This document shows positions 4,831 to 31,813 of a DNA stretch of 64,000 nt, one piece after another. Made by a program: the position numbers and the translations under genes. Positions within the stretch are counted from its first letter, which is position 1, and each line of letters opens with the position of its first letter. The DNA comes from Bdellovibrionales bacterium (GTDB lineage: Bacteria; Bdellovibrionota; UBA1018; CAIMNF01), in the NCBI GenBank assembly GCA_947372355.1, contig CANBTI010000005.1:103-64102 (forward strand), in the 5' to 3' direction. Below the pieces are notes generated by a model. It saw nothing but the letters and a program-made list of their open reading frames with translations, was not told the DNA's origin and did no database searches.

Positions 4831-4860
4831 TCACAAATAATCCTCTATAATTATTACAAA

Positions 4861-4898
4861 AAGGAGCCAAATTGATACCAATTTGGCTCCTTTTTTAT
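4861..4898 (+). terminator. Rho-independent terminator after pnp
   Basis: ggagccaaatt (4863-4873) / aatttggctcc (4880-4890) 11-bp stem followed by tttttta. Confidence 0.7.
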
Positions 4899-5049: not shown

Positions 5050-5919
5050 ATGAAAAAGTTACTAACAGCATCAATTCTTACTATCGTTCTTCAAACTTCT
5101 GCGTACGCGCAATCCAGTTCAGCAGTGACTGCTCCAGCAGCATCTGCAAATGAAACGGGCGGACCGGCAGCTGCAACCAGCACTGCTGCTGCTCCTAAAA
5201 AATCACTCATCAACATTAAATATGTTGGTGTGTATGAAGGCCCGAACTTTACCTCTGATGGTAATAACATGCATGGCGACGATACCTCAGTGAGCAATCG
5301 TCCAACTCTTCAAGCTAACTTGGCTGATAACATCAATGCAGGTTTGCAAACTCGTATCAATACTGCTTTCACTAAAGATGGTATTAAAGCGGCAAATGAA
5401 ACTTGGCGCTTATATGGAACTTTTAAAAACGTAGCATCTTACGGAATTTTGAGCTTAGACCTCATTCCACGCATCATGCTTCCAACTTCTAAAAGCAATC
5501 ACAATAAAACCATGACTTTGAGTCCGGAATTAATCGCGGCAATTAACATCAATCCTAAAGATTCACGTTTTAGCTTAGACTACTCTCCACAAATGCTTGG
5601 CTATATTTATAGCGATAACAACGTTGCAACTGCAGCAAATGCAAAGTCTTTTATCCTATTACACAATATCGAAGGAACTTATCAATTAGGAGCTAGCTCT
5701 CAGCTTACTTTTGGTTGGTACCCTGAATACAACGTTGGAAAAACAACTAAATTCACTAACGACAGTAATGAAGTAGATGTTGGCGTGAACTTTGATGTTG
5801 CTAAAGGTTGGGCAATCAATCCATACGTAGGCATTGAACCAGTTGGATTAGGAAAAGACGGAGCAAGCGCTCTAAAAAGTATGGAAGCTGCTCTAGTGGT
5901 TTCTGGAACTTTCCTCTAA
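5050..5919 (+). CDS. Secreted protein, likely outer-membrane beta-barrel
   Basis: Signal peptide MKKLLTASILTIVLQTSAYA; Ala/Thr-rich linker; alternating hydrophobic pattern to C-terminal ...VVSGTFL; own terminator downstream. Confidence 0.55.
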   Translation: MKKLLTASILTIVLQTSAYAQSSSAVTAPAASANETGGPAAATSTAAAPKKSLINIKYVGVYEGPNFTSDGNNMHGDDTSVSNRPTLQANLADNINAGLQTRINTAFTKDGIKAANETWRLYGTFKNVASYGILSLDLIPRIMLPTSKSNHNKTMTLSPELIAAININPKDSRFSLDYSPQMLGYIYSDNNVATAANAKSFILLHNIEGTYQLGASSQLTFGWYPEYNVGKTTKFTNDSNEVDVGVNFDVAKGWAINPYVGIEPVGLGKDGASALKSMEAALVVSGTFL

Positions 5920-5945
5920 TTCAAAAAATAGATCGTCAAATTTTA

Positions 5946-5986
5946 AACACTCGCTTGAAACAATTCAAGCGAGTGTTTTTTTTTGC
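5946..5986 (+). terminator. Rho-independent terminator
   Basis: aacactcgcttgaa / ttcaagcgagtgtt perfect 14-bp stem followed by T9. Confidence 0.75.
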
Positions 5987-6016: not shown

Positions 6017-7009
6017 ATGTCGGAACATTGGTTTCTAGATCTAGACGGAGTTAGATCAGGACCTTACCAAACAAGTGAAGTCATGAGCTTGGTCGCTGAG
6101 GGAGAAATTCTTCCTCATCATCAAATTGCAACTGATCTAAAAAGTCAGAAGTGGATGACTATATTAGAATGGCGTCTCAATCAAAATAGAAATGCTGAAC
6201 CGAAAAAAGAATTCATTCCTGAAAAAGTTTCAGAAACGCCTAAAACTCAACCAATTGTACCACCGGTAGAACCAATTGAATCTATTCAACTGGAAGAAAA
6301 AGAAGAGTTACAAAAATTTGTAAAAGAAGTTCGAACACCTCCACCGATTGCCTCAAAACCAAAAAGCAAACGGGATCCAATGGCAGAAATGTTTGATATC
6401 CTTCAAAACACAAAGCAAAAACGTGAAGTAAAATCACAACAGTCTCACGCTCAGGCACACTCACAATCTCAAGCAGCTCCCAAAAACCATGTTCCTAACA
6501 TTGTAGAAAAAATACCGGCAACAAAAAGTAACTTAGGTAAAACTATTTTTATTGGTTTGATCATCACTATTTTTGGGTTTGCATTAGGACAACTGTTTCA
6601 ACAAAAGAAATCTTCTGATTCTTTAACCGCCGATACTCAAAATATCTCAAAAACAGTAACCACAACTCCCTCTACACCAGCCCCTGTAAGCACGCCGGAA
6701 CAAATGGGCACCGTGGATCGCAGTACTGAAAAAATGACCATTCGAGCACAAGTGCCTGTACAAGCTGCAGCCACCCCGAGTCCTACTCCTGAACACACGA
6801 AAGACATTCAGGAACTCAGAGATCTCAAAAAAGAGTTATTGGAGCTAAAGGCTTTAAAAGAGGAAATGCACAATAATAACGACTCTGGTCATATGGGCAA
6901 TACTCCAAGATCTAGTGATTCAAATCCTGAAGTTGATTTAAACGCTGAAGATGCCCCAGTGGACTCAAACGGTAATCCAGTAAATCCATCAAACGACGTT
7001 CATTATTAA
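6017..7009 (+). CDS. Membrane protein with N-terminal GYF-like (DUF4339-type) domain and low-complexity Pro/Thr/Ser-rich regions
   Basis: HWFLDLDGVRSGPYQTSEV...QKWMTILEW motif; one TM helix (IFIGLIITIFGFALGQLF); low-complexity tails. Confidence 0.5.
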   Translation: MSEHWFLDLDGVRSGPYQTSEVMSLVAEGEILPHHQIATDLKSQKWMTILEWRLNQNRNAEPKKEFIPEKVSETPKTQPIVPPVEPIESIQLEEKEELQKFVKEVRTPPPIASKPKSKRDPMAEMFDILQNTKQKREVKSQQSHAQAHSQSQAAPKNHVPNIVEKIPATKSNLGKTIFIGLIITIFGFALGQLFQQKKSSDSLTADTQNISKTVTTTPSTPAPVSTPEQMGTVDRSTEKMTIRAQVPVQAAATPSPTPEHTKDIQELRDLKKELLELKALKEEMHNNNDSGHMGNTPRSSDSNPEVDLNAEDAPVDSNGNPVNPSNDVHY

Positions 7010-7039: not shown

Positions 7040-7651
7040 TTGAGAAACCTTTATGACATGTTAATTAGTTTTGAAGGAACAGAAGGCTGTGGAAAATCCA
7101 CCCTGATCCGAAATCTTTTAAAAAAATTGGGCAAAGCGAAAATCAAGGCGATCGCCACACGTGAGCCAGGTGGATCACCTGTTGCCGAAAAAATTCGCGA
7201 AATCATTTTAAACAATGAAATGGATCCCCTCACCGAGCTTTTTTTATATGAATCCGCTCGTGCAGAACATTTTGAGAAAATAATTGCTCCTGCACTCAAA
7301 ACGAAAAAAATCGTACTCTGTGATCGATTCATAGATTCCACCATTGCCTATCAGGGCTTTGCGCGTGGATTAAAACTTCCGATGATTGAAACCTTAAATA
7401 AATTGGCAACTCATCATCGCGCACCAGATCTGACTTTCTTCCTAGATCTTCCAGTCGAAGAAGGACTTGCACGAGCTACCGATCCCAATAAATTTGAAAA
7501 AGCAGGAATTGAATTTCAGAAAAAGGTTCGTAAAGGATTTTTGTACTCGATTAAAAAAAATAAAAAACGTTGGAAAGTGATCTCCGTAAAAAACAAAACT
7601 CCAGATGAAGTGACTGAAGAAGTTTTTCAAATCATTGTGAAAAAATTATGA
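7040..7651 (+). CDS. tmk: Thymidylate kinase
   Basis: P-loop ISFEGTEGCGKST, DRFIDSTIAYQG LID/substrate region; about 200 aa. Confidence 0.85.
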   Translation: MRNLYDMLISFEGTEGCGKSTLIRNLLKKLGKAKIKAIATREPGGSPVAEKIREIILNNEMDPLTELFLYESARAEHFEKIIAPALKTKKIVLCDRFIDSTIAYQGFARGLKLPMIETLNKLATHHRAPDLTFFLDLPVEEGLARATDPNKFEKAGIEFQKKVRKGFLYSIKKNKKRWKVISVKNKTPDEVTEEVFQIIVKKL

Positions 7652-8673
7652 AGTCCACCCTTCCTATTGCTCCAGCAATTTTATCCGCGCATGAAGATAA
7701 GTTTATCAACTTGATCGAAAAATATGAGCGCCAACAAAAAATTCATCCCACACTTTTAATCACTGGTTTAGATGGAGTTGGTAAAAGAAGTATGGTTCTT
7801 CAATTGATTCAAAAACTTTTTTGTGATCAACCTGGAAAATCGTTGGAAGCTTGTGGAAATTGTAAATCCTGTAAACGGGCACTTTCTAGTCAGTGGCTTG
7901 ATCTTTATTGGTTAGAACCCGAAACCGGTGATGATGATACAAAACTTGGAACCCACAAGATTGAAGCATTTCGTGAATTAAAAACAAAAATGGGTCTTGG
8001 TCCGATGGAAGAGCCGTTTAAGGTGGTGGTGATTACCAATGCCGATCGAATGACCCTTCAGGCGGCAAATTCAATTCTTAAAACTTTAGAAGAACCACCA
8101 GCGAATTGGATTTTTATTCTTACGGCAACTGATGCATCTCGCTTATTACCCACTATCCTCTCCAGATGCATGGAAATAAAATTGCGTCCTCTTGAATCAA
8201 GAGAGGTTTATACTATTTTACAGCAGATCCAAGGTGCAGAATTTCAATCGTCTAAAGCAAGATTTGCTTCCCGCGCCTCTGAAGGAAGTATCTCCAGAGC
8301 ACAATACTTTATGGAGGATGAAACCTGGAAAGTGCGCGATCAACTTCTGGGGTTTTTAAGTAATCCAGCATCCGAATGGATGAAGCTCATTGAACAACTC
8401 TCTAGTAGCCAAAGAGCGCTTCAATTGAGCTTAGATATTATTGAATCTTTATTCATGGATTTATTAAAATCCTCTATTGAATCAGATTACGCTTGGGTTA
8501 ATGAAGATCAAAAAGAGTTTCTACTTCAGTGGCAAGAATCAAAAAAAATATCCTCCCAAAAAATTGTTGAAGTACTCACGCAAATTGCTGAAAAACGCCC
8601 CTTCATTACCCTAACACTCAATTCTAAATTACTCGCTCAAGAGAGTCTCATCCCCATTTTAGGAATGTTATGA
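7648..8673 (+). CDS. holB: DNA polymerase III delta-prime subunit
   Basis: AAA+ clamp-loader fold (GLDGVGKRS, zinc module CGNCKSCK, SRC-like TILSRC); ATGA overlap with tmk. Confidence 0.75.
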   Translation: MKSTLPIAPAILSAHEDKFINLIEKYERQQKIHPTLLITGLDGVGKRSMVLQLIQKLFCDQPGKSLEACGNCKSCKRALSSQWLDLYWLEPETGDDDTKLGTHKIEAFRELKTKMGLGPMEEPFKVVVITNADRMTLQAANSILKTLEEPPANWIFILTATDASRLLPTILSRCMEIKLRPLESREVYTILQQIQGAEFQSSKARFASRASEGSISRAQYFMEDETWKVRDQLLGFLSNPASEWMKLIEQLSSSQRALQLSLDIIESLFMDLLKSSIESDYAWVNEDQKEFLLQWQESKKISSQKIVEVLTQIAEKRPFITLTLNSKLLAQESLIPILGML

Positions 8674-9365
8674 TTGAGCTAAAAGACATTGAAGTTAAAT
8701 TCAAAGAACGAATGATTTTTGAGTGTGTGAATCTTCATGTTCAAGCAAAAACCTCATTAGCGATTATTGGTCCTTCTGGATCTGGAAAAAGCGTTTTACT
8801 AAAGTTGATTGCAGGATTGATTTGGCCCAGCCATGGTGAGGTAAAAGTAAATTCAGAAAAAGTGAGCATGCTTTTTCAAAAGAATGCTCTTTTTGATTCT
8901 TATACACTTCTAGAAAACTTGCTTGTTCCACTGGCAGAAACTATTGGAATCCATGGTGAAGAAGCAATTGAAAGATCGATGGTAATGTTAACGGCCGTGG
9001 GTTTGGATCAATCAGCAAAGCTTTATCCAGATGAAATCTCCGGAGGAATGCAAAAGCGTCTGGGGATTGCTCGTGCACTCATCATTGAACCAGAAGTGAT
9101 TTTATACGATGAACCAACAGCAGGATTAGATCCTATCACCTCTCGTTCGATTGCCGATTTGATGATTAAGCTTCAAGAAATGAATAAAACCACCATGGTA
9201 ATGGTGACCAATGATTTACAACGTGCCTATCAAGTTGCGGATCTCATCGCATTTTGTGATCACAAAAACATTAATGTGATCGGCACCCCTGAAGAATTAA
9301 AAAACACAAATGATACAGAACTGAGAAGATTCATCTACTCCAATGCATTGGGGAGTAATTCATGA
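8670..9365 (+). CDS. ABC transporter ATP-binding protein, MlaF-like (subunit 1: consensus signature, H-loop His replaced by Asn)
   Basis: Walker A GPSGSGKS, signature ISGGMQKR, Walker B ILYDEPTAGLD, H-loop position MVMVTNDL. Confidence 0.8.
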   Translation: MIELKDIEVKFKERMIFECVNLHVQAKTSLAIIGPSGSGKSVLLKLIAGLIWPSHGEVKVNSEKVSMLFQKNALFDSYTLLENLLVPLAETIGIHGEEAIERSMVMLTAVGLDQSAKLYPDEISGGMQKRLGIARALIIEPEVILYDEPTAGLDPITSRSIADLMIKLQEMNKTTMVMVTNDLQRAYQVADLIAFCDHKNINVIGTPEELKNTNDTELRRFIYSNALGSNS

Positions 9366-10159
9366 GTATTCGATTTGATCATGTTTCAAAAAAGTTTGGT
9401 CCCAAACAAATTTTAGATGATGTTTCATTCGAAGTGAAGCGTGGGGAAATTCTATTTATTTTAGGTAAAAGCGGGATGGGTAAATCAGTAACCCTAAAAC
9501 ACATCATTGGTGTATTTGCTCCCGACGCCGGAAATATCTTTGTGGATGATTATGAAGTGAGTGCGATGAACACTCGCGAGAGAATAGACGAACTCACCCT
9601 TGTTCGCCAGCGCTGCGGAATGGTATTCCAGCATCCTGCACTACTAGATTCACTCACCAATTATGAAAACATTGCTTTCGGCTTAAGATCTCAGCAGTAT
9701 CAGAAAAAAATTGGTAAAAAATTAAGTGAAGATGAAATTCACGAACTCGTTTTAGAAAAATTATCTCTCGTGCATTTAGATCAAGAGATTCTCTCCCTCT
9801 TCCCTCATGAAGTTTCATACGGCGTTCAAAAGCGGGTTTCGATGGCTAGAACTTTAGCCCCAGGTCCTGAATATTTGTTATTTGATGAACCCACCACTGG
9901 ATTAGATCCTCTCAGTACTAGTTCTATTAATGAATTAATCTTTGAGCTTTCTAGAAAACTAAAAGTAACCAGCATCATCGTTTCTCACGATATGGCCTGT
10001 GCACTTTCCATAGCAGATCAAATTTTATTCTTAGATCAAGGAAAAATTTTACTCATCGCCCCTCCCAAAGATGTTGTGAATAGCACCATTCCATTGGTTC
10101 AAGATTTCTTTAAAGAAACGATGGCCCTGCTTCCTCCTAATTGGAGCATTAAAACATGA
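9362..10159 (+). CDS. ABC transporter ATP-binding protein, MlaF-like (subunit 2: degenerate signature, intact H-loop)
   Basis: Walker A GKSGMGKS, signature position VSYGVQKRVS (no LSGG), Walker B LLFDEPTTGLD, H-loop IIVSHDM. Confidence 0.75.
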   Translation: MSIRFDHVSKKFGPKQILDDVSFEVKRGEILFILGKSGMGKSVTLKHIIGVFAPDAGNIFVDDYEVSAMNTRERIDELTLVRQRCGMVFQHPALLDSLTNYENIAFGLRSQQYQKKIGKKLSEDEIHELVLEKLSLVHLDQEILSLFPHEVSYGVQKRVSMARTLAPGPEYLLFDEPTTGLDPLSTSSINELIFELSRKLKVTSIIVSHDMACALSIADQILFLDQGKILLIAPPKDVVNSTIPLVQDFFKETMALLPPNWSIKT

Positions 10160-11031
10160 GTATAGAATCAAGAGTTACGGATGCAATGGAAGGCACTACT
10201 CACACTTTGCAATCAGTGATTTCAAAGTCTGTCAGTGTAGTCGTTCATACCCTTGAAGAACTGGGAAGCGGTTGGATCTTTTTCCTACGGGTGATGCGCA
10301 CTTATCGAAAAACATCTGGATATAAAGATGCCATTATCGAGCAAATTGCCGAAGTTTCTACACGGACGATTTCTACTGTTATCTTTGCAGGATTATTTGT
10401 GGGAGCAATTTTAGTCCTTCAATTTGATGTGATGCTCAAACGTTTTGATGCTGAAACACTTTTGGGTGGTCTCAATACTTCAGCCACCATCCGTGAAATT
10501 GGTCCCATGATCATTTCATTTTTGCTCGCTGGAAAAATTGGTGCTTACACCACTGCTGAACTTGCCAACATGCGCGTGACTGAACAAATTGATGCGGTTG
10601 AAAGTTTGGGTGTTAGTCCGATTCAATATTTAATCATACCCAGATTTATTGCAATTGTACTTTCATCCGTAGTACTCCTTGCGATCGGTTTATCGGTGAG
10701 TGTGCTAGGATCTATTTTTGTAGCGCAATACTTTTGCGGAATGAATATGTATCAATACATTGCTTCAATTCCTAGATTTGCTGGAGCATGGACCATTTTC
10801 GAAGGGCTAGTTCGTTCCATTATTTTTAGTACTATCGTAGCAAATGTTTCTACTCACAAAGGCTACTCTGCAACCGGAGGGGCTCGCGGTGTAGGTAGAG
10901 CGGTAACCCAATCGGCAATTTATATTAACGTTTACATTGTGGTTGCCAATTTCATTTCCTCTTCTTTATTAGAGTGGATTCATGACCTTTTCTTTTGGGC
11001 CAAAAACATTGTGGAAAGGTTAATTTTCTAA
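10156..11031 (+). CDS. MlaE-like ABC permease (subunit 1)
   Basis: About 290 aa, multi-TM, MlaE/YrbE-type conserved ET.QI.A.ESLGV..IQYL..PR-like segment (TEQIDAVESLGVSPIQYLIIPR). Confidence 0.75.
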   Translation: MSIESRVTDAMEGTTHTLQSVISKSVSVVVHTLEELGSGWIFFLRVMRTYRKTSGYKDAIIEQIAEVSTRTISTVIFAGLFVGAILVLQFDVMLKRFDAETLLGGLNTSATIREIGPMIISFLLAGKIGAYTTAELANMRVTEQIDAVESLGVSPIQYLIIPRFIAIVLSSVVLLAIGLSVSVLGSIFVAQYFCGMNMYQYIASIPRFAGAWTIFEGLVRSIIFSTIVANVSTHKGYSATGGARGVGRAVTQSAIYINVYIVVANFISSSLLEWIHDLFFWAKNIVERLIF

Positions 11032-11795
11032 TGGGATTAGATATTTTTAACCGTCATCTGCGTACCCTTTACCTTGCAATTCAGTTGTTGAAAAAAATGT
11101 TCCATCAACTTTCACGTGGACCGCATCGTAAATTAGAATTTTTTAATCAAATGGAAATCATTGGTGTGGGGAGTTTACCCATCATCAGTATTGCCACCGG
11201 ATTCACAGGCCTGGTGATGACCAGTGAAATTGCTTGGCACATGGATTTTGCACTCAGCAATGTTTCTATGATTCCAGGTTTTACAGGCCAATTTGTGGTG
11301 AGAGAACTGGGAATCGCGGTTCCTGCATTACTCATGGTTTCAAAGGTGGGAGCTTCTCTCACTGCTGAACTTGCCAGTATGCGAATCACCGAGCAATTGG
11401 ATGCATTTAAATTATTAAAAATTGATGTCGTCTCTTATCATATTTTCCCTAGATGGGCGGCATGCACAATTTCTACTGTATGCTTAACCCTGATTTCTAT
11501 TGCGATCACGATCATCATTGCCATGATTACCGCAGTAACTAAGTATCATTTTAATTCTCAGGAATATTTCAACACTTTGGCTCAATTCATCAATTCCATG
11601 GATTTGCTCTGTGCTGTAACAAAATCTGCTATTTTTGGGATGGTCATTCCCCCGATTGCCTGTGCATACGCTTTAAAATGCGAAGGCGGCGCACAAGGCG
11701 TAGGACAAGCCACTACCGATGCAGTGGTAACCTGCACTTTGGCCGTGATCACGCTGGATTTCATTTTGACCGCAATTTTTAGTGCGCTTCTCTAA
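11031..11795 (+). CDS. MlaE-like ABC permease (subunit 2)
   Basis: Paralog of the preceding gene (TEQLDAFKLLKIDVVSYHIFPR). The likely start is the ATG at 11031 overlapping the upstream stop (TAATG); the ORF track's 10995 start lies inside the upstream gene. Confidence 0.7.
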   Translation: MGLDIFNRHLRTLYLAIQLLKKMFHQLSRGPHRKLEFFNQMEIIGVGSLPIISIATGFTGLVMTSEIAWHMDFALSNVSMIPGFTGQFVVRELGIAVPALLMVSKVGASLTAELASMRITEQLDAFKLLKIDVVSYHIFPRWAACTISTVCLTLISIAITIIIAMITAVTKYHFNSQEYFNTLAQFINSMDLLCAVTKSAIFGMVIPPIACAYALKCEGGAQGVGQATTDAVVTCTLAVITLDFILTAIFSALL

Positions 11796-11818
11796 ATTCA
11801 GGGATAAACTTTTCTCAA

Positions 11819-12646
11819 ATGAAATGGACAAACGAAGCCAAGGTTGGCGCATTAGTCACCAGTACAGTAGTCATCGCGTTAGGATTTGCATGGCTTCTCG
11901 GATTTAAAAATCCGTTCTTAGATCAAAATTATTTTTATGTTTCTTATAATTTCGCAGGGGGCATTGAACTTGGCTCTCATGTTAGATTATCAGGAATCAA
12001 AGTTGGAAAAGTGGAAGAGATTGAATTCTTTGCGCCATCTCCAAACCAACAAGTATCAATGAAGGAACCTGGCAGTGCCGATACTGATCCAGGCTTAGCC
12101 TACACACCCGTTCGTTTAAAAATTTCAGTGAGAAAAGCAGCTCTTCCTGGAATCAGAAAAAATTCACACTTCTACATCAATCTCGCTGGCTTGATTGGCG
12201 AGCGTTATATTGAAATCACACCAGGCTCCATCGACTCTGCTCAATTGCATCCTGGAGATATGGTTGCAGGTGTGGATCCTCCTCGTATCGATCAACTCAT
12301 TTCTCAAAGTTTCAACTTGGCTGGAAAAATTCAAGATCTGATTGAGAAAAACAAAGGTGATATTACTAAATCGATCGAACTTCTTTATAAATTAAGTAAC
12401 AACTTAAATAAAACTTTAGAAAAAATTGATCAAAGTAAAATCTTATCTAGAGATCTTGCTTCCTTGATCACTAACCTAATGGAAATGACTAACGATCTAA
12501 GAGAAGTCACCAAAAACACCCGCACTACCGAAGGACAAAAAACACTTAAGCTTTTGCACGATATCTTATGGCGTTTAGAGCCTCTTGATTCTGATCGAAT
12601 TAAGCAGTTCCTTCAAAAAGACGGCGTAAAAGTTAAAATTTTCTAG
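11819..12646 (+). CDS. MlaD-like MCE-domain periplasmic substrate-binding protein
   Basis: N-terminal TM anchor then MCE domain (VRLSGIKVGKVEEIEF), C-terminal helical region. Confidence 0.75.
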   Translation: MKWTNEAKVGALVTSTVVIALGFAWLLGFKNPFLDQNYFYVSYNFAGGIELGSHVRLSGIKVGKVEEIEFFAPSPNQQVSMKEPGSADTDPGLAYTPVRLKISVRKAALPGIRKNSHFYINLAGLIGERYIEITPGSIDSAQLHPGDMVAGVDPPRIDQLISQSFNLAGKIQDLIEKNKGDITKSIELLYKLSNNLNKTLEKIDQSKILSRDLASLITNLMEMTNDLREVTKNTRTTEGQKTLKLLHDILWRLEPLDSDRIKQFLQKDGVKVKIF

Positions 12647-12663
12647 TATTAAGAGGTTTAAAA

Positions 12664-13398
12664 ATGAAGTCCCCATTTGAATTTTATAAAAAACAACTTC
12701 CCATCCTTTTGGTTCTACTCGCGGTAATTTTGGGAATTCGCTCTTCCATTATTGAGCCTTTTCGAATTCCAACACGCTCCATGCTTCCTGGTTTGATCAC
12801 CGGAGATTTTTTATTCGCTGATAAAATGCATTATGGATTCCATGTTCCATTTACTGATACATTTGGATCTCCCGTCTATTTGAACCAAACCAAAAAGCCA
12901 AACCGTGGAGATATTATTATTTTCACACCGCCAGAAGCAGGACAAGAAAGCTTGTACATCAAACGCGTTGCTGGCCTACCTGGTGATCGCATTCGTTTTG
13001 ATGGTAAAAATGTAGTGATCAATGGCAAAACATTGAGTAAAATCGAACTCACCGGTGTTGATCGTGATCAGGTTCTAAATATGAAGGGCTTTGATCCTGA
13101 AGCTCGTTATGAAAAAAGCAAACTTCATGTATTTAAAGAAACTCTCATGACCAAAGATCAAGGTGGAGTTGAAAAAAACTATCTCGTACTTGAGGATGAT
13201 AGTTTTGAAAATACCAACTCTTCTCAAGAGTTCAACATACCTGAAGATCATTATTTCGTACTCGGGGATAATCGTGATGATACCCGCGATAGTCGTGTTT
13301 TTGGGGTGATTTCATTCAGTTCCATTCGTGCAAAAGCACTCGTGATCTGGTTCTCATGGTCTTTCCAGCTCGATCGTATTGGAAAAATGATCAACTAA
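12664..13398 (+). CDS. lepB: Signal peptidase I
   Basis: Catalytic Ser box (IPTRSMLPGL), Lys box (YIKRVAGLPGD), box E GDNRDDTRDSR. Confidence 0.85.
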   Translation: MKSPFEFYKKQLPILLVLLAVILGIRSSIIEPFRIPTRSMLPGLITGDFLFADKMHYGFHVPFTDTFGSPVYLNQTKKPNRGDIIIFTPPEAGQESLYIKRVAGLPGDRIRFDGKNVVINGKTLSKIELTGVDRDQVLNMKGFDPEARYEKSKLHVFKETLMTKDQGGVEKNYLVLEDDSFENTNSSQEFNIPEDHYFVLGDNRDDTRDSRVFGVISFSSIRAKALVIWFSWSFQLDRIGKMIN

Positions 13399-23628: not shown

Positions 23629-24663
23629 TTACTTATTCGTTGGTTTATAAATTTTATTTATACCAATCATAGAATCAGTGAACTCTAAATGATTAGTGGG
23701 AATCCATAAAAAATCAGGATGATCACTTCCATTGATCCATTCGCCACCAATAATATTATTTCTTGCATCTAAATCTAAAATATAGTCCATTTCAATTTTA
23801 TCTGATTTGAAGTTCGGCGTTCCAACAACAGGATCCCAACTTGAATTTTCTAATTCATCTGTATAACGAAAAGTTCCATGCACTCGAAGTCCATGATCTC
23901 CATCCTCTGATTCTTCTGAGCCTAATATTTGAAAATCATAAGCATAAGCAGGCTGATTCCAAATTTCTTTACCAGGATCTCTTTCCACCACAAATGCTTT
24001 TTTCAATAATCCAAGCTGATTTGCTAATACTACATGCATCGCTCCAGGATTTATGTCTGAGCATGGACTCACCAAATCTACACCTCTACACTTCATACCA
24101 ACCTGTCCCGTTCTAACTTTAAAATGAACAGCAGCAGCGAAAGACAACAATCCCTTCACATCCGAAGATCCGAAAGGCACGAGCACTCCATCAGGATTTG
24201 CCAAAATTACTGGGGCAGGTTCTGAATATTGAATTGCAGCAATAGACCAACCATCACAGATTCCATACCAATAAGCTGCTCTAGGATTACCATAGGATCG
24301 AACTTCATTATAAAGAGGATAATCATAATTACCCATGTATAGATCGTATTTTTCTGCTGGAGATAGCATCTTCAATTCTTCTAATGACATTTTTAATATT
24401 TGAGATTTTGAAAAGGGAATATAATAAAACCCATCATGATCAGGTGAATTCCATCGGTAATTGATACTCCCTTTATTCATAGGCCAAAAAGTTTCTGACC
24501 AGGGAGTGAGCGCAGTAGCGGCATGCAAAGGCAATTGATTTACATTATAATTATAATTCCTTTCTACATCCATATTAGCCGGATTGTTATAACCGTCCCA
24601 AGTTCCTGCTCGAACGAGGACAGAATTAAAATTAATCAAAAGTAACAAAATAAGTATTTTCAT
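23629..24663 (-). CDS. Secreted protein, possible transglutaminase-like/cysteine-hydrolase fold
   Basis: Probable start at ATG 24663 (MKILILLLLINFNSVLVRA signal peptide; the track's start at 24693 is a TTG). YGICDGWSIAA resembles the G-x-C-W nucleophile motif of transglutaminase-like cysteine enzymes. Confidence 0.6.
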   Translation of the reverse strand: MKILILLLLINFNSVLVRAGTWDGYNNPANMDVERNYNYNVNQLPLHAATALTPWSETFWPMNKGSINYRWNSPDHDGFYYIPFSKSQILKMSLEELKMLSPAEKYDLYMGNYDYPLYNEVRSYGNPRAAYWYGICDGWSIAAIQYSEPAPVILANPDGVLVPFGSSDVKGLLSFAAAVHFKVRTGQVGMKCRGVDLVSPCSDINPGAMHVVLANQLGLLKKAFVVERDPGKEIWNQPAYAYDFQILGSEESEDGDHGLRVHGTFRYTDELENSSWDPVVGTPNFKSDKIEMDYILDLDARNNIIGGEWINGSDHPDFLWIPTNHLEFTDSMIGINKIYKPTNK

Positions 24664-24712
24664 AAAGTCCTCAATTCGAAGAATGATTTGCAACTATCGC
24701 GCCATCAAAAAC

Positions 24713-24727
24713 TGGCTCAATAGTTGC
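24713..24727 (+). promoter_or_regulatory. Candidate sigma-54 (-24/-12) promoter upstream of CBS gene (1 mismatch)
   Basis: TGGCTC-aatag-TTGC; the -12 element lies 26 nt upstream of ATG 24753. A second 1-mismatch match in the opposite direction (TGGCGC-gatag-TTGC, rc of 24690-24704) faces the secreted-protein gene. Confidence 0.3.
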
Positions 24728-24752
24728 TGTTATAAAACAAGAGGTAATTTAA

Positions 24753-25244
24753 ATGAAAAGACAAACCAGAGAAGATGAAGTTTCCGTCAATAATAGTTTC
24801 ATGGCTAACTTCATGCGAACTGATGTGATTTGTGTTGATCAAGACACTCCGATCATGGAAGTTGCATTAACCATGAGTGAGCAACAAGTGGCTGATGTTG
24901 TCGTCACCAAGCTCATTAACAATAAAATAAAGCCGGTTGGATTAATTACAGATCGAGATTTAATTATGAGCTTAGTCAATCAGCATACAGCAGCTGAATT
25001 TTTGAGGGCTTCAGATTTAATGACCAGACCTGTTCGAGTGGTTTACGATACGGATGACATCCACGATATGATTAAAGTTATGCAACATGAAGGACTTGGG
25101 CGTTTGCCTATCGTAGATTCAGATGGAGATTTAATGGGAATCATCACTGCAAAAAAGATCCTGCAGCTACTGGCTCAAGAATTTTATGAGCTCACTCACC
25201 GAGCAAAGAGAAAGAACATGTACAAAACAGTGATTGAACATTAA
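24753..25244 (+). CDS. CBS-pair domain protein
   Basis: Two CBS motifs (VICVDQDTPIMEVALTM...; GRLPIVDSDGDLMGIITAKKI). Confidence 0.75.
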   Translation: MKRQTREDEVSVNNSFMANFMRTDVICVDQDTPIMEVALTMSEQQVADVVVTKLINNKIKPVGLITDRDLIMSLVNQHTAAEFLRASDLMTRPVRVVYDTDDIHDMIKVMQHEGLGRLPIVDSDGDLMGIITAKKILQLLAQEFYELTHRAKRKNMYKTVIEH

Positions 25245-25633
25245 CCCCTTCGATGGTTGAACAATGTTCCGGAGGTAAATTCAATAACCAGGGGGAGATG
25301 GGGGGCATCATCCAAATTATTGAAAAGCATTGTTCAACACACCAAAAGAGTTCTGTAGAAACGAATGAATATCCGAGAATACCCACGAAAAAATCATAAT
25401 TTAAAACAAATATTTTTCACATAATAATTAGATATAAATATTAAAAATTAAATCATATTTATATTTGCACTTAGACTGAAATGCGCGGCATTTAAATTAC
25501 CAATTCGTTAAGTCGCGGTATTTCATCAGTTTGCTCTGTGATAAATATTTTTGTGCAATATTGAATAAATAATTTATAAAAAATATTTAATTAAGATTAT
25601 TTTGTGTCGCAACTGGCTTGTGCAGAGTGAAAA

Positions 25634-26749
25634 CTACAGATTTACAACTTTCAATTCAGGCTTTCGAATATTTAAAAAATTCATGACTCTTTGCGAACTA
25701 TAACCGTCACCATAAATACTAAGATCATCTTGAAGGCTTCTATAAAATGACTGGTCATGAATGGCTCGTTCTAACGAATAAATAATTTTTTCTTGATTTG
25801 AACCCACTAATACCGCCACTCCTGCTGCAACCCGCTCTGCCCTTTCCGTTGAATCTCGCAAAACAAATACAGGTTTATGAAGAAATGAAGCTTCTTCTTC
25901 AATGCCTCCCGAATCGGTGAGTATGATATCGCTCTCGATCATTAACTCAGTAAAATCTTCATAACCTTGTGGCTCAATCAATTGAATTCGATCATTTTTA
26001 CCTAGTTTAAATCTAACCAAACTTTCAAAATGAGGATTTCGATCTAATTGAAAAATTAACCTTACATTACTATTGTTTTCTACCACCTTTAAAACTGCGC
26101 TACAGATAGATTCAAGAGGCTTACCAACATTTTCTGGATTATGGCAGGTCATTAAAATTATTTTTTGCTTTTTATAAAATCGATTATTCGAAAACGTTGT
26201 TTTTCCTATTTTTTCAAGAGTGAGTCTAAGCGCATCGATACCAGTATTTCCAGTAACCCAAACATTCTTTCTAATTCCTTCATCAAGTAAGTTTTGCCTT
26301 GAATCATCGGTAGAGGAAAAATTATAATCAGCAATGGAACTAATAATTTTTTTATTTTTTTCTTTATGCGATTCAAACTGATGCTCACTAGATCTCAATC
26401 CAGATTCAATATAAACAATTGGAAAATTTTGATAGTAAGACGAGAGTGCTACCGCCGTGGTAACCAAAGAATCACCTTGTACAAAAACTAAATCTGGTTT
26501 TTCAAATTTTAAAATTGGTTGTAGAGAGTTTAATACAAACACACTTAAATCAGTGGCTGAATCATTTGAAAATTGAAGATCGTAATCCACTTTCAATTCA
26601 AAATGATTCAAAAATGATTTAAGAGAAAAATCTGTTGATTCTATCAAAACTAAAACCACCTTTTGTTTCCGGTTTAATGCCTCTAAAACTAAAGGTGCAA
26701 TTTTAATCGCTTCGGAACGTGCGCCAATACAAAACAATAGCTTCTTCAT
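25634..26749 (-). CDS. wecB: UDP-N-acetylglucosamine 2-epimerase (non-hydrolysing)
   Basis: N-terminal CIGARSEAIKIAPLV and C-terminal DSGGIEEEASFLHKPVFVLRDSTERAE motifs of the WecB/MnaA family; orphan, flanked by long AT-rich non-coding DNA. Confidence 0.8.
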   Translation of the reverse strand: MKKLLFCIGARSEAIKIAPLVLEALNRKQKVVLVLIESTDFSLKSFLNHFELKVDYDLQFSNDSATDLSVFVLNSLQPILKFEKPDLVFVQGDSLVTTAVALSSYYQNFPIVYIESGLRSSEHQFESHKEKNKKIISSIADYNFSSTDDSRQNLLDEGIRKNVWVTGNTGIDALRLTLEKIGKTTFSNNRFYKKQKIILMTCHNPENVGKPLESICSAVLKVVENNSNVRLIFQLDRNPHFESLVRFKLGKNDRIQLIEPQGYEDFTELMIESDIILTDSGGIEEEASFLHKPVFVLRDSTERAERVAAGVAVLVGSNQEKIIYSLERAIHDQSFYRSLQDDLSIYGDGYSSQRVMNFLNIRKPELKVVNL

Positions 26750-27000
26750 AGGAAAACAACTCCTTTCTGAAAACGAAACTTACTAGCAAATGTGAGGTAA
26801 TAAAATGATTAGTTTTGTAGACGGCAATTATTTTTAATCAACAATAATCTTGAACGACAAAATGTCACTTCAACATGATTAAATTACCCCTAGAAACAAT
26901 CAACGCAGTTACGCGGCACGTTGTCTCGATTTTACTTGTGTGAAGTCGCAATTAATAACAAAATTTATTGAGTAGATTATATTTATCAATCGGGGGATTC

Positions 27001-28413
27001 ATGAAGAATTTTAAGTTTATATTTTTAGGTATGTTAGCACTTTCAACTATGGGCCTTAGTTCAGCTCCCAAAAAGGGAACCGCCACCTTTGAATTAAGTG
27101 ACTGGCCAAAACAAATGAGCAAAATTCATTCGATGGAACTTGATTTAGCTGGTGTGAACCTAAATCAAAAGCAAGTGGATCTCATCATCAACAATGATCA
27201 AATTGAATCATTAAAAAAATTGGGATTTAAATTAATCAGCACCAATTTTAATTCAAATAAATCATCTCCAGATTCTGGCTATCAATCCCCAGTAAAAATC
27301 GAATCCAGCTTAAAACAATATGCAGCTAAATTTCCAAACTTAGCTCAACTCACTTCAATTGGAAAATCTCTCGAAGGAAGAGATATTTGGGCAATTCGTC
27401 TTACTAAAGACGTTGCAACCAATAACCCAGCAAAACCTCACATACTTTTCAATTCCATGCATCATGCGCGCGAAGTGATGACTGCTGAAGTTGGTTTAGA
27501 TATTGTTGATCAATTGCTCACCCAATACGGAAAAGACGCGAGCATCACTCAATGGATGGATTCATATGAAATTTGGGTGATTCCAATGTTTAACGTAGAT
27601 GGAAATAATTTAGTATGGACTCACGATAGCATGTGGAGAAAAAATGCTCGCGGTGGGTATGGTGTGGATATTAACCGCAATTATCCATATGCTTGGAATA
27701 GTTGCAATGGATCCGGAAGTTCACAAAGTGCTCAAGATTTCCATGGAGCAAGCGCTGCTTCAGAACCTGAAACAAAAGTAATGATGAACTTCGTTAATCA
27801 AGTTCGCCCGGTATTTGAAATTTCCTATCACTCCTACAGTGAATTAGTGATTTACCCTTATGGTTGCCCAAATCAGCACACACAAACAAAAGATGTGATT
27901 GAAAAAATCGGTAAAGAACTCGCTAGTAAACTCGTTTCCGATAACGGTAAAGGCACCTACACCGCCGGAACTGCACCAGAACTTCTCTATGCAGTAGATG
28001 GAGGCGATATTGATTGGCTCTATCACGAAGCACAAGTGATTCCATTTGTGATTGAAATCAATTCAAACGGTCAAGGCTTTCAACCTTCTTATTCAAAATG
28101 GCGAGATATTACAGTTCAACGCCAAAGAGAAGGATGGAAGTATTTATTGAATCGCATGAGTGGTTCGGCAATTCACGGCCAAGTGACAGATCAAAAAGGC
28201 ACTCCAATCACTAATGCAAAACTTCACATCACTGGGCCTACCAACCAAGATTATGCCGTAAACAATGAAGGATATTTTTTCGTAATTCTTAACCCAGGAA
28301 ATTATTCAATTACCGTTCAAGCACCTGGAACTGAAAATACCTCAAAAAATATTACCGTTGCTAACAAACCGATTGAATTGCCAATGAAGATGTTTACTGC
28401 CAAATCCCTGTAA
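27001..28413 (+). CDS. M14 zinc carboxypeptidase with C-terminal carboxypeptidase-regulatory-like (transthyretin-like) domain
   Basis: Signal peptide from ATG 27001 (MKNFKFIFLGMLALSTMGLSSA); zinc ligands HHAREVMTAE; C-terminal IHGQVTDQKGTPITNAKLHITG...NYSITVQAPG beta-sandwich. Confidence 0.8.
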   Translation: MKNFKFIFLGMLALSTMGLSSAPKKGTATFELSDWPKQMSKIHSMELDLAGVNLNQKQVDLIINNDQIESLKKLGFKLISTNFNSNKSSPDSGYQSPVKIESSLKQYAAKFPNLAQLTSIGKSLEGRDIWAIRLTKDVATNNPAKPHILFNSMHHAREVMTAEVGLDIVDQLLTQYGKDASITQWMDSYEIWVIPMFNVDGNNLVWTHDSMWRKNARGGYGVDINRNYPYAWNSCNGSGSSQSAQDFHGASAASEPETKVMMNFVNQVRPVFEISYHSYSELVIYPYGCPNQHTQTKDVIEKIGKELASKLVSDNGKGTYTAGTAPELLYAVDGGDIDWLYHEAQVIPFVIEINSNGQGFQPSYSKWRDITVQRQREGWKYLLNRMSGSAIHGQVTDQKGTPITNAKLHITGPTNQDYAVNNEGYFFVILNPGNYSITVQAPGTENTSKNITVANKPIELPMKMFTAKSL

Positions 28414-29230
28414 TCGGAGTAGCAGTTACATCACCGTTGCCAAGATTCCCGATACCAAAATGATCTTCAATCATTTTTAATATGGAATAATGATTATGAG
28501 GCAAGTTTACCACTGAGCCTGGTTTTACATTTGCACCATAGAATGCAGTAAATATTTGGTTTTTACTGAAAATATTTTCAGATTCATCAAAGGTAATGAT
28601 CAAAAGAGTATCCTTCATGAATTTTGAATCATTTAATATTCCACCAAAATTATCTGAAAACCATTGGGAAGCAAAAGCAGAACTGGTGTTGTGCCCATCA
28701 TTTTTTAAATTAGGAATATACATAGAAAATGCAGGCACAGAATTAGAAGCAATATCAATTTTCAATTGCGCAGAAGGAACTACCTTTAAACATTCATTCC
28801 TATTATTTTGAACATTAGTAAAACTAAGAAATGGAACATGCTTCCTCGCATAGAGACCACTATCAGAACCTAAAAAACACGGTTGAGGCAAGTCTTCTGC
28901 GTAAACTTTCCATGATAAGTTTTTCTTCGCTAGTAGACCACCAATATGTTCGGCATTGATACTTACTGAATCATCATTTCTCACACCTTGAGTACTACCA
29001 GAAATCATCGCTAAGTAATTAGGCTGAGAAGGATGAGCTTCTGCTGAGAACTGAGTAAAGAGAGCACCTTCATTTGCCAATTTCGCAAAAAAGGGCTGCT
29101 TTAATGCAACACTATAGTTTGCATTTTCAAAAACAACAATCATCACACGATTAAAAGAAGACTCAGCTGCCCAAACACTAGAAGAGTTAAAAAATGTAAG
29201 CATCAGGAAAACAAACAAAAACTTAATCAT
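28394..29230 (-). CDS. Secreted phosphoesterase-family protein (PLC/AcpA-like)
   Basis: Signal peptide; MIVVFENANYS resembles the V-V-x-E-N-R-S-F-D motif of the phosphoesterase family. It is shorter than typical members, hence moderate confidence. Confidence 0.5.
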   Translation of the reverse strand: MIKFLFVFLMLTFFNSSSVWAAESSFNRVMIVVFENANYSVALKQPFFAKLANEGALFTQFSAEAHPSQPNYLAMISGSTQGVRNDDSVSINAEHIGGLLAKKNLSWKVYAEDLPQPCFLGSDSGLYARKHVPFLSFTNVQNNRNECLKVVPSAQLKIDIASNSVPAFSMYIPNLKNDGHNTSSAFASQWFSDNFGGILNDSKFMKDTLLIITFDESENIFSKNQIFTAFYGANVKPGSVVNLPHNHYSILKMIEDHFGIGNLGNGDVTATPITGIWQ

Positions 29231-29287
29231 CTGATTGTATTATCACTGATCTAAGTTCTCGGTTATTTTTAATTTTATTCAATCATT

Positions 29288-30190
29288 TTAGATACTTGCT
29301 TCGGAATCTCGAATCTGTTTCACTTCATAAGCAAACTCACCCCAAACCCAAACGGGAACTATTCCACTTCTGAAAATATCTTTAGAAACACTCCCAAAAA
29401 CCGTACTCTCCCAAGGTCGAAGTGTAGAGGAGACTCCAACCAATTCAACTTTTCTTTTTTTACAAGCCTCTAGAATAGACTTACTCACCGTATTTGGTGA
29501 ATCGATCACCATGGTAGAGATTTTTATTTGTGAATTAATATCTTTATATTTTTTTGCCCACACAGATAATTCTTTTTCGTCTTCATCATTTTTTCTCAAA
29601 AAATTATTCGGGAACATGGCCGGGACGCCGATTGCACTATATACACCCAAGGCTTCCACCAACGATCGACCTGCATGAAAAATAATAATTTCATCAATAC
29701 TACCCTCACAAAAATTTATAAAGTTCTTAAAAGCAACTTCTGAGTTTTTTGAAAAATCAGTAGCAAAAATTGCTTTTTTTGAAAGGTCAAAGATAGATTC
29801 AGTTAGAAAAAGAATGGGTATTGGGGAAATATTCAGCAATTTCTCAGCAAAACTTCCCATGACTAAGCGATCAATCCCTTTTCTTCCATGAGAAGAGAGC
29901 GCTATTGCAGAAGCCTTATTCTCTAAGGCAAAGATTAAAATCTTTTTTATATAATCATCCCGATCATACGAATCACTGATCAAAACTTTTGGTTGATGAA
30001 AATTACAGATCCCTAAACTCACGAGATAAGAATATAATTTATTCTGCGTAATTTCTTGATCTGGAGAAGTAATCGAAACTGGATAAACACTTTTACTTTC
30101 TAAAAACTTCAAAGTGGAAAAAGATGGCTTTACTGTTTCATCATCAGGATCAACAGCCCAAATTACAATTGAATGCTTAGAGTGTATCAT
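29288..30190 (-). CDS. Tandem universal stress protein (UspA) domain protein
   Basis: ALSSHGRKGIDRLVMGSFAEKLL matches the Usp ATP-binding G-x2-G-x9-G(S/T) motif; two Usp-like halves. Confidence 0.6.
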   Translation of the reverse strand: MIHSKHSIVIWAVDPDDETVKPSFSTLKFLESKSVYPVSITSPDQEITQNKLYSYLVSLGICNFHQPKVLISDSYDRDDYIKKILIFALENKASAIALSSHGRKGIDRLVMGSFAEKLLNISPIPILFLTESIFDLSKKAIFATDFSKNSEVAFKNFINFCEGSIDEIIIFHAGRSLVEALGVYSAIGVPAMFPNNFLRKNDEDEKELSVWAKKYKDINSQIKISTMVIDSPNTVSKSILEACKKRKVELVGVSSTLRPWESTVFGSVSKDIFRSGIVPVWVWGEFAYEVKQIRDSEASI

Positions 30191-30222
30191 TAACCCTCCT
30201 GATCATTGAGAATGAATCCTAA

Positions 30223-31659
30223 TCAAGATTCATCAGTTGTTTCCAATTGATTTTCTTCACTTTCGTCTGCAGAAGACAATCCGTATTCTTGTTCTTTACG
30301 ATAAAGAGTTCGACGATTAATGCCAAGAATTTGAGAAGCTTTATCTTTTCTTCCGCCAGTTTTTTCAAGAATCAAACGAATATATCTTTCTTCTAATTGA
30401 TTAATTGAAGGAAAATCAATGGTAGATGTAGAAAAGAACTTATCAGCACTTTGTTCCTCAACAGATGGTAAATCCACCTCATCTACTAAATTTGAAGTGC
30501 ATAAAACTACAGCGCGTTCCACAACATTTTCTAGTTCACGAACATTACCATCCCAACGCATACTCATTAATTTTGAAATTACTCTTTTGGTAAAACCTTT
30601 AACATTAATATTATTTGCAGCAGCGTGCTTTCTAAGGAAATGCTCGGCTAGAAGAGGGATGTCATCCACTCTTTGTCTTAGTGGTGGAATGACAATTGGA
30701 ATTACACTCAGTCGATAAAATAAATCATCTCTGAAAAGACCCTCTTTCATTGCTGATTTTAAATCCTTATGTGTAGCAGAAATAATTCTAACATCGATAT
30801 CTCGAGCAATATTTTCACCTACCGCACGTACCTTTTTTTCTTGAATCACTCTTAATAGTTTAGCCTGAAGTGATACATCCATATCTCCAATTTCATCTAA
30901 AAATATAGTTCCGCCGTTTGCTTCCTCAAATAAGCCCCTTTTTCTTTGAGAAGCTCCAGTAAAAGAACCTTTCGCATGACCAAAGAGCTCAGATTCTAAG
31001 AGATTTTCAGGAATCGCGGTACAGTTGATTGCTACAAAAGGTTTGTTTGCTCTTGGTCCGCCGGCATGAATTGCTTGTGCAACCATTTCTTTTCCAGTAC
31101 CACTCTCACCCGTAACTAAAACATTGGATGTAACCTGTGAAACGCGATTCACTAAATCAAAAACAGATTTAATCGCTGCACTTTTTCCAATCATGCTTCC
31201 TAACGACCAATTACTTTTTAATTCTTGTCGAAGCGCTGTATTATCGCGTTGAAGCTGACGATACTCAATTGCTCTTTCAACATTGACGAGCATTTCAGTA
31301 AGTTTAAAAGGTTTTACAATGTAATGGAAAGCTCCTTTATTCATTGCTTCAACTGCAGTTTCAATTGATCCAAATGCAGTGATTAAAATTACTGGAATTT
31401 CTGGTCGAAGAAGTTTTAACTTTTCAGTTAACTCTAAACCGCTCATTTGTGGCATTTTAATATCTGAAATAATTAAATCAATATTGCCTTCAGTTTTATT
31501 TGAAGCATGAATCCCATCACTTGAAAAAGATTGTAGTGCATCATTTGCAGATGAAAAACAAATCACCTCATAACCGTCACCGGTTAGATAATCATCAAGT
31601 AGGGCTCTCATTTCTTTGTCATCATCAATCACTGCAATTTTAGCTTTAGAGATTTTCAT
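30223..31659 (-). CDS. Sigma-54-dependent response regulator (NtrC family: REC + AAA+ + HTH)
   Basis: REC (AVIDDDKEMR...ISDIKMPQMSG), Walker A GESGTGKE, sigma-54 contact loop ESELFGHAKGSFTGA, C-terminal Fis-type HTH. Confidence 0.85.
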   Translation of the reverse strand: MKISKAKIAVIDDDKEMRALLDDYLTGDGYEVICFSSANDALQSFSSDGIHASNKTEGNIDLIISDIKMPQMSGLELTEKLKLLRPEIPVILITAFGSIETAVEAMNKGAFHYIVKPFKLTEMLVNVERAIEYRQLQRDNTALRQELKSNWSLGSMIGKSAAIKSVFDLVNRVSQVTSNVLVTGESGTGKEMVAQAIHAGGPRANKPFVAINCTAIPENLLESELFGHAKGSFTGASQRKRGLFEEANGGTIFLDEIGDMDVSLQAKLLRVIQEKKVRAVGENIARDIDVRIISATHKDLKSAMKEGLFRDDLFYRLSVIPIVIPPLRQRVDDIPLLAEHFLRKHAAANNINVKGFTKRVISKLMSMRWDGNVRELENVVERAVVLCTSNLVDEVDLPSVEEQSADKFFSTSTIDFPSINQLEERYIRLILEKTGGRKDKASQILGINRRTLYRKEQEYGLSSADESEENQLETTDES

Positions 31660-31813
31660 ATTTTTTCCTTAGGGTATGTGTAATTCAAACCAGTCAAAAA
31701 CACAAAGGAATAGCAGGGGAAATTGATAATTATTTAGTTTAAGTATATTTAATTTTATGCTAATAATTTAGTAGAAAACGGCCAACAAGAATCAGACCAA
31801 CAGTTAAAAAAAT

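Follow-up and report, generated by a model that had tools for sequence, protein, structure and literature searches.

An MCE/Mla-type transporter locus of Bdellovibrionota with a putative heterodimeric ATPase pair, motif defects converging on one nucleotide site, and duplicated permeases

Introduction

Among the closest described systems are the MlaFEDB complexes of Escherichia coli, Pseudomonas aeruginosa and Acinetobacter baumannii (6XBD, 7CH8, 6Z5U), in which one mlaF and one mlaE gene supply a homodimeric ATP-binding cassette (ABC) ATPase with two consensus ATP sites and a homodimeric permease, joined by an MCE protein, MlaD (~183 amino acids, aa), and by the partners MlaB (a STAS protein), MlaC and MlaA. 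It is still debated how MCE/Mla systems couple the hydrolysis of ATP to the movement of lipids, and in which direction the lipids move. The locus described here lies in a 64,000-nucleotide (nt) stretch of DNA, hereafter the window, from a Bdellovibrionales bacterium (assembly GCA_947372355.1, contig CANBTI010000005.1, positions 103 to 64,102 of the forward strand), where a block of five plus-strand genes at 8670-12646 encodes two MlaF-like ATPases (F1 and F2), two MlaE-family permeases (E1 and E2) and a single MCE-domain protein (D). The block resembles MlaFEDB in combining MlaF-type ATPases, MlaE permeases and an MCE protein with an N-terminal transmembrane (TM) helix, but differs in having two ATPases and two permeases, a predicted degenerate ATP site, and a D protein that is extended to 275 aa by a C-terminal helical region of ~110 aa; moreover, none of the three partners is encoded in the operon.

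The mycobacterial Mce1 and Mce4 systems (8FED) come close in another respect, as they combine two different MlaE-family permeases with MCE proteins that carry a helical domain after the beta-barrel. However, they rely on one orphan homodimeric MceG and on six different MCE proteins (mceA-F), in contrast to the two operon-encoded ATPases and the one MCE gene of the window. The solved Mla and Mce1 structures among the matches obtained here all have a homodimeric ATPase, in keeping with the premise of the first-pass annotation, a reading of the window made from its sequence, that a homodimer is the normal state of Mla/MCE systems. Two ATPase genes side by side, like those of F1 and F2, are found in OppD/OppF and EcfA/EcfA', presumably as heterodimers, but there both sites are usually consensus and the membrane subunits are unrelated to MlaE.

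Degenerate nucleotide sites have been described in ABC exporters such as TM287/288, BmrCD, TmrAB, TAP1/2, ABCC1 and CFTR, where Walker B and H-loop lesions on one nucleotide-binding domain (NBD) and signature lesions on the other strike the same site while Walker A stays intact (PMC7756269). The distribution of defects in the window is alike, but the exporter membrane fold is replaced by the unrelated MlaE-type fold, the NBDs are separate polypeptides and an MCE ring is the expected partner; in a neighbour-joining (NJ) tree, the asymmetry of the window appears to have arisen within the MlaF lineage, independently of these exporters. Open-access papers and bioRxiv yielded no description of a heterodimeric, degenerate or duplicated MlaF/MlaE, of a Bdellovibrio MCE system or of a two-ATPase MCE system, and a broad phylogenomic survey of Mla mentions MlaDE duplications but not ATPase asymmetry. 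Two apparent precedents were set aside, namely mlaF1/mlaF2, which refers to two independent Francisella Mla systems (PMC3312209), and MlaE2, which is the subscripted stoichiometry MlaE2F2D6B2 of a Brucella preprint. Heterodimeric permeases (Mce1) and degenerate sites (exporters) are already known; what appears to be new is their combination in the MCE family, which establishes no new category.

ATPase motifs and composite nucleotide sites

It is probable, on the comparisons set out below, that the five genes specify one MCE/Mla-type lipid transporter with an F1:F2 motor, in which one site would hydrolyse ATP and the other would bind it with impaired hydrolysis. The two ATPases, F1 (8670-9365, +; 231 aa) and F2 (9362-10159, +; 265 aa), both match ABC_tran, are 40% identical to each other, and have NF008809 (MlaF) among their top NCBIfam matches, yet below its equivalog cut-off. 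For F1, the best PDB sequence matches are to MlaF, and the AlphaFold2 model, predicted with confidence (predicted local distance difference test, pLDDT, 88), has as its best Foldseek matches E. coli MlaF (TM-score 0.85-0.89), followed by MceG. For F2, the PDB sequence matches to MceG and MlaF rank just under those to oligopeptide and betaine importer ATPases.

Motif registers were taken from phmmer alignments to solved MlaF (for F1) and to other ABC ATPases (for F2), as well as from a direct multiple alignment of F1, F2, E. coli MlaF, the pair of Bdellovibrio bacteriovorus and a canonical Bdellovibrio MlaF. Both proteins have an intact Walker A, Q-loop and Walker B Glu. In F1, Walker A reads GPSGSGKS (8769-8792, +), so that ATP binding is probably retained; the signature ISGGMQKR (9036-9059, +) is consensus and aligns with LSGGMARR of MlaF; Walker B reads VILYDEP (9096-9116, +), with a Glu148 that is kept throughout the window clade; and VTNDL falls on VSHDL/VSHDV of MlaF, which places Asn181 (9210-9212, +) at the position of the H-loop His. 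Compared with MlaF, F1 of the window clade also lacks 15 residues from the segment between Walker A and the Q-loop, and F1 is without the MlaF C-terminal extension, the alignment stopping at MlaF residue 246 with ~7 residues remaining. In F2, Walker A reads GKSGMGKS, and Walker B (YLLFDEP), D-loop (TTGLD) and H-loop (VSHDM) are all consensus (9872-9994, +), while the signature is the degenerate VSYGVQKR (9812-9835, +): phmmer sets EVSYGVQKRV on ELSGGERQRV and EFSGGQKQRI of solved ABC ATPases, and against LSGGMARR of E. coli MlaF the first signature Gly is Tyr153. The first-pass annotation had assigned a consensus signature with an Asn H-loop to F1 and a His H-loop with a degenerate signature to F2, and alignment with E. 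coli MlaF leaves both registers in place, with no sign of mis-registration.

For a site in an ABC dimer, one NBD provides Walker A, Walker B and the A-, Q- and H-loops, and the other provides the signature (PMC7756269). By this definition, F1 Asn181 and the SYG of F2 both belong to the site between F1 Walker A and the F2 signature (site A), just as had been proposed from the window's letters, and the reciprocal site (site B), formed by the F2 catalytic motifs and the F1 signature, is fully consensus in the window. An F1 homodimer would possess two H-loop-defective and, in many relatives, Glu-defective sites, and an F2 homodimer two signature-defective sites; only the F1:F2 pairing gives a canonical site, which argues for a single transporter with a heterodimeric motor.

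From these motifs, we infer that F1 and F2 form a head-to-tail heterodimer within a complex of the probable composition F1-F2-E1-E2-D6, in which the hexameric state of D is presumed. Site B, comprising Walker A, the Walker B Glu and the H-loop His of F2 with ISGGMQ of F1, would be canonical and hydrolyse ATP, and site A, comprising Walker A, Walker B and the H-loop Asn of F1 with SYG of F2, would bind ATP but hydrolyse it poorly or not; retention of ATP at site A is expected because the A-loop Phe, the Walker A Lys and the Q-loop are conserved. By analogy with ABCC and ABCB exporters, site A would probably have the role of a regulatory hinge or of an ATP 'glue', and the asymmetric nucleotide cycle would be paired with an asymmetric E1/E2 unit that sits below a homo-oligomeric, helically extended MCE ring. 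A lipid substrate and a direction of transport are likewise presumed, and the label 'importer-type' is an assumption.

Conservation and lineage-specific lesions

The defects are conserved among homologues. Among 120 metagenomic homologues of F1, reaching down to 56% identity, ISGGMQKR is present in every one (120/120), and in the 118 whose H-loop motif was recognised by script it is always [TS]ND and never contains His. The 120 metagenomic homologues of F2, reaching down to 62% identity, have an S-[Y/F]-G signature in 117 cases, together with DEP and SHD in all 120. In a 23-sequence alignment, Asn181 of F1 is invariant, as are its signature, Q-loop, D-loop and Walker A Lys; the fifth position of Walker A is highly variable among orthologues. 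As far as these alignments tell, the motif features are not due to chance, and the idea that F1 is a decaying pseudogene was dismissed in view of the invariant motifs and the confidently predicted fold. Many of the F1, F2 and D matches lie on contigs of equal size (e.g., 39207, 270346 and 619849), which is consistent with co-location.

A scan with an F1 profile, covering one genome per GTDB species, returned 80 loci. The two-ATPase arrangement recurs, in the order F1-F2-E1-E2-D, in ~20 of them, all from Bdellovibrionota, so that it is shared by relatives of the bacterium studied here. The remaining 53 loci, from Acidobacteriota, Bacteroidota, Alphaproteobacteria, Kiritimatiellia and others, have the canonical order E-F(-D) with a single ATPase, and in these the motifs are consensus: SGG in 53/53, DE in 53/53 and the H-loop His in 52/53.

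Within the two-ATPase loci, the lesions differ between lineages and yet fall on the same site. In the window clade, F1 has Walker B DEP and an H-loop Asn, and F2 has SYG; in the Bdellovibrio/Pseudobdellovibrio clade, Walker B has become DDP (Glu to Asp), again with an H-loop Asn and with SYG or SFG in F2. Walker B of F1 is DSP in L085 (Glu to Ser, as in CFTR), with an H-loop His and a partner SFG. An H-loop Ser is found with DEP in L020 and with DDP in L090, both next to an SYG partner, as well as with DDP in L037, where the contig ends before F2 can be read; DEP is combined with an H-loop Gly and SYG in L091, and with an H-loop Thr and SFG in L092. In L037 and L084, Gly additionally replaces Ser in Walker A of F1. 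Every F2 of the loci carries S-[Y/F]-G, and no lesion on site B, that is, in the F2 catalytic motifs or the F1 signature, was encountered in the loci and homologues examined.

A wider search of 1.84 billion cluster representatives (50%-identity clusters), of which the best 150 were considered, provided ~45 F1-like proteins with Asn, Ser, Thr, Gly or Pro at the H-loop and DE or DD in Walker B. Divergent F1-like representatives were selected for context checks on their non-consensus Walker B or H-loop residues, and all four of the informative ones (L085, L090, L091 and L092) adjoin an F2 with SYG or SFG, followed by two MlaE and one MlaD wherever the contig is long enough. Replacement of the Walker B Glu by Asp or Ser, along with an H-loop and a partner signature that deviate, is the degenerate-site pattern of ABCB, ABCC and CFTR (PMC7756269), and the lesions of the different lineages evidently converge independently on site A. 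The earlier prediction of one canonical and one degenerate composite site is in this way backed by the conserved complementary defects, the lineage-specific lesions of site A and the consensus motifs of the single-ATPase controls.

Several observations weigh against an impaired site A in an obligate F1:F2 pair. The F1 of L085 retains its H-loop His; the Walker B Glu persists in F1 of the window clade, so that site A has no changes but His to Asn and the SYG signature, a mild form of degeneracy; an ABCC1 mutant with His to Asn in nucleotide-binding site 2 (NBS2) still transports (PMC7756269); and F1 and F2 are parted by inserted genes or gaps in L005, L014 and L015, and by an 89-nt gap in L008. 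Because Glu148 is kept and the His-to-Asn change is tolerated in ABCC1, site A of this organism may be a slow site and not a dead one.

A heterodimer with two active sites, in which Asn and Tyr would be tolerated variants that tune the kinetics and the asymmetry would be mild or quantitative, could build on the Walker A Lys, Q-loop Gln and Walker B Glu kept in F1 of the window clade, and on the wild-type-like transport of ABCC1 NBS2 mutants with His changed to Asn or Gln (PMC7756269). It is nevertheless an unlikely explanation, given that the catalytic Glu of site A has been lost to Asp or Ser in most relatives, that the H-loop drift among Asn, Ser, Thr and Gly resembles relaxed constraint rather than a tuned catalytic residue, that the replacement of the first signature Gly by an aromatic residue is fixed clade-wide, and that F1 evolves faster than F2.

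Permeases and the MCE protein

The permeases E1 (10156-11031, +; 291 aa; PF02405, 190 bits) and E2 (11031-11795, +; 254 aa; PF02405, 182 bits) share 26% identity and also match TIGR00056. The likely start of E2 is the ATG at 11031 and not the listed TTG at 10995, in view of the 1-nt overlap of the former with the E1 stop. The best PDB sequence matches of both permeases are to MlaE, with weaker ones to YrbE1A/B (E 1e-13 to 1e-18); as E1 and E2 score higher to proteobacterial MlaE than to YrbE1A/B, the permease duplication is probably independent of that in Mce.

With ATPases and permeases both duplicated, the locus might alternatively house two homodimeric transporters, F1+E1 and F2+E2, that share or alternate on one MCE ring after tandem duplication of an F-E module. 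In Francisella, indeed, two Mla systems exist independently, each with its own mlaF (PMC3312209), and in solved structures MlaF and MceG are as a rule homodimers. Such an arrangement is nonetheless highly improbable: the two sites of each homodimer would be defective in the same way, a state difficult to square with strict conservation throughout the phylum, the defects are complementary and additional lesions always hit the same composite site, the genes are ordered F1-F2-E1-E2 rather than F1-E1-F2-E2, there is just one MCE gene, and none of the loci examined has F2-E-D alone with a consensus signature. A single transporter with an F1:F2 motor accordingly remains the preferred reading.

D (11819-12646, +; 275 aa; PF02470) is the sole MCE-domain protein of the block. 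Its AlphaFold2 model, of moderate confidence (pLDDT 68), comprises a TM helix (residues 5-26), an MCE beta-barrel (36-153) and a C-terminal helical region of the length given above. Foldseek aligns the model with Mce1 subunits over its full length, as the top match, and with MlaD over the barrel, while a sequence search against the PDB returned next to nothing. Among the matches listed, the close homologues of D have identities of 96-77%, and nearly all of them are exactly 275 aa long; F1 homologues of similar rank, from a separate search, are only ~63% identical, and such conservation is unusual for an MCE subunit. No gene for MlaB (STAS), MlaC or MlaA was found in the operon or among the ~30 open reading frames (ORFs) of the window scanned with Pfam.

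In the Bdellovibrio/Pseudobdellovibrio clade, a conserved ORF of 180-216 aa directly follows the MCE gene (L008, 9942-10592; L085, 7117-7668; homologous in L005-L007, L009, L010, L016, L018, L019 and L052). It has a signal-peptide-like N-terminus, ends in ...YYF or ...WYF and is without a Pfam match; its features resemble those of a small outer-membrane beta-barrel, and it may act with the system as a partner in the outer membrane. This ORF has no homologue in the window, where lepB occupies the position.

Distribution and evolution of the pair

Carriers of the two-ATPase locus include Bacteriovoracaceae (L002), Pseudobdellovibrionaceae, Bdellovibrionaceae, B. bacteriovorus strain kdesi (L008) and metagenome-assembled genomes (MAGs) labelled Oligoflexia. 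A canonical E-F-D locus with a long D is additionally present in a Bdellovibrio sp. (L038) and a Pseudobdellovibrio sp. (L051), which makes the two-ATPase system a distinct paralogous system and not the only MCE system of the phylum. The single locus without an H-loop His among the 53 with one ATPase belongs to a Rhodospirillaceae MAG (L059, 2589-3368); it has GGSASGKT as Walker A and 'ITSN' at the H-loop, and a script scan of that locus detected no adjacent MlaE.

The two major clades have different genomic neighbourhoods around the operon, which follows tmk and holB in the order tmk-holB-F1 in the window clade (L001, L002, L020 and L092) and divergently adjoins the tricarboxylic acid cycle genes icd, mdh and sucCD in the Bdellovibrio clade (L008, L014 and L085). 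The F1/F2 junction seems prone to insertions. In the MAG locus L014 (5986-10482), an F1-type gene is followed, through an overlapping stop/start, by two genes for ABC exporter half-transporters (ABC_membrane plus ABC_tran) in place of F2-E1-E2-D, and inserted genes also lie between F1 and F2 in L005 and L015.

In NJ trees of the ATPases and of the permeases, F1, F2, E1 and E2 each form their own clade, and the internal branching of F1 broadly matches that of F2, a pattern that fits co-inheritance of the pair since before the split of Bdellovibrionia and Bacteriovoracia. These trees do not separate duplication inside Bdellovibrionota from recruitment as the origin of F1/F2 or E1/E2. Across 16 loci, F1 diverges faster than F2, with 43-54% identity to the window orthologue as compared with 51-68%.

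This faster divergence, together with the shortening of window-clade F1 between Walker A and the Q-loop, the inserted genes that split F1 from F2 in some relatives and the existence of an F1-like orphan (P0386, L086), could be taken to mean that F1 is a regulatory or decaying ATPase-like protein rather than a transporter subunit, the real motor being an F2 homodimer. We regard this as scarcely credible: an F2 homodimer would place SYG at both sites, the consensus signature of F1 is exactly what F2 lacks, and F1 has the confidently predicted MlaF fold and the invariant motifs noted above (signature, Q-loop, D-loop and Walker A Lys). The F1:F2 heterodimer thus keeps its place as the favoured motor.

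Other candidates for the system or for a natural fusion of its ATPases did not withstand inspection. P0386 itself (Walker B DD, H-loop His) was rejected as a member of the system, being an orphan ATPase, and P0380 (416 aa), which had the appearance of a natural F1-F2 fusion, proved on alignment to be a frameshifted, error-ridden assembly. The tandem-fused MlaF-like ATPases P0361-P0364 (546-581 aa), which were the top representative matches, have a consensus first half and a degenerate S[S/A/N]G signature in the second half; they were not taken as evidence for the system, as P0362 (L081, 6001-7668) has no MlaE or MCE gene nearby and stands alone beside mreBCD-pbp2-rodA. They may constitute a separate asymmetric ATPase family.

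Gene string and genomic neighbourhood

The five genes belong to a tightly packed plus-strand string at 7040-13398, as delineated from the ORF list with families assigned by Pfam and NCBIfam. The first-pass annotation had counted two MlaF-like ATPases, two MlaE permeases and one MlaD, and the ORFs lie where it placed them, Pfam and NCBIfam agreeing on two ABC_tran, two MlaE and one MlaD, with tmk and holB upstream and lepB downstream. Its interval of 8670-11795 covers the ATPases and permeases, with the single MCE gene just beyond it, and was extended here to the full block. An identical F1 is carried by GCA_947379695.1.

The string opens with tmk (dTMP kinase; 7040-7651, +; PF02223, TIGR00041), whose true start may be an internal ATG a few codons downstream, and continues with holB (DNA polymerase III delta'; 7648-8673, +; PF13177, TIGR00678), the stop of which overlaps the F1 start; it closes with lepB (signal peptidase I; 12664-13398, +; PF10502, TIGR02227), which begins 17 nt after D behind an AAGAGG ribosome-binding site. 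ATGA overlaps join tmk/holB, holB/F1, F1/F2 and F2/E1, and a TAATG overlap joins E1/E2, giving an unbroken series of stop/start overlaps from holB to E2 that suggests translational coupling. The proposal that overlapping stops and starts link tmk-holB to lepB therefore stands for tmk through E2, and fails for E2-D and D-lepB, which are separated by gaps of 23 and 17 nt. A hairpin scan of the string detected no strong terminator-like hairpin within 7040-13398; such hairpins occur solely upstream of it, at 4858-4895 and 5945-5978. Given the overlaps and short gaps and the lack of an internal hairpin, co-transcription of the string is likely.

The window is a housekeeping region of the chromosome, from an uncultured, Bdellovibrionota-like MAG, and the genes around the string include pnp, glpD, aspS, sucAB-lpd and pfk as well as those for a sigma-70 family sigma factor and an OmpA-family protein. 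The stretch just upstream of tmk contains two poorly characterised ORFs: one (5050-5919, +) has a signal peptide and a weak DUF6733 match and precedes a strong terminator-like hairpin, and the other (6017-7009, +; 330 aa) has an N-terminus that is weakly GYF-like, a middle part of low complexity that is rich in Pro and Ser, and a single predicted TM segment. Further away, an ORF at 23629-24693 (-) matches the Pfam family TGase_elicitor (PF16683, E 4e-33), known mainly from oomycete transglutaminase elicitors. The G+C content is 0.33-0.36 across 24000-44000 as against 0.38-0.43 on both flanks, and the genes of this low-G+C segment encode a UDP-GlcNAc 2-epimerase, an M14 carboxypeptidase, a sigma-54 activator with a histidine kinase, a DAC/DACNK diadenylate-cyclase-like protein and a GAF-domain protein.

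Conclusions and outlook

As a natural variant found across the phylum, the proposed F1:F2 system would allow single-site mutants to be made without engineered heterodimers. The appearance of Glu-to-Asp/Ser, H-loop and signature lesions of the CFTR/MRP type in an unrelated ABC fold is a case of convergence, and argues that degenerate sites give a general mechanistic advantage. On the level of annotation, the locus flags a putative envelope lipid transporter of predatory, Bdellovibrio-like bacteria that is at present labelled generically as 'ABC transporter ATP-binding protein' or 'MlaF'.

A more far-reaching interpretation, which is offered tentatively and is more doubtful than the heterodimeric motor itself, would be that Bdellovibrionota evolved a fully asymmetric MCE machine, with F1/F2 and E1/E2 beneath a homo-oligomeric MCE ring, independently of the eukaryotic and Gram-positive exporters. 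In it, a permanently ATP-occupied site A would act as a hinge or regulator that functionally replaces MlaB, and would subject the two different permeases to a power stroke from one side, by which the direction of lipid flow might be fixed. If this were true, the role of a degenerate site could for the first time be studied in a non-exporter ABC fold, and in a genetically tractable predator, B. bacteriovorus.

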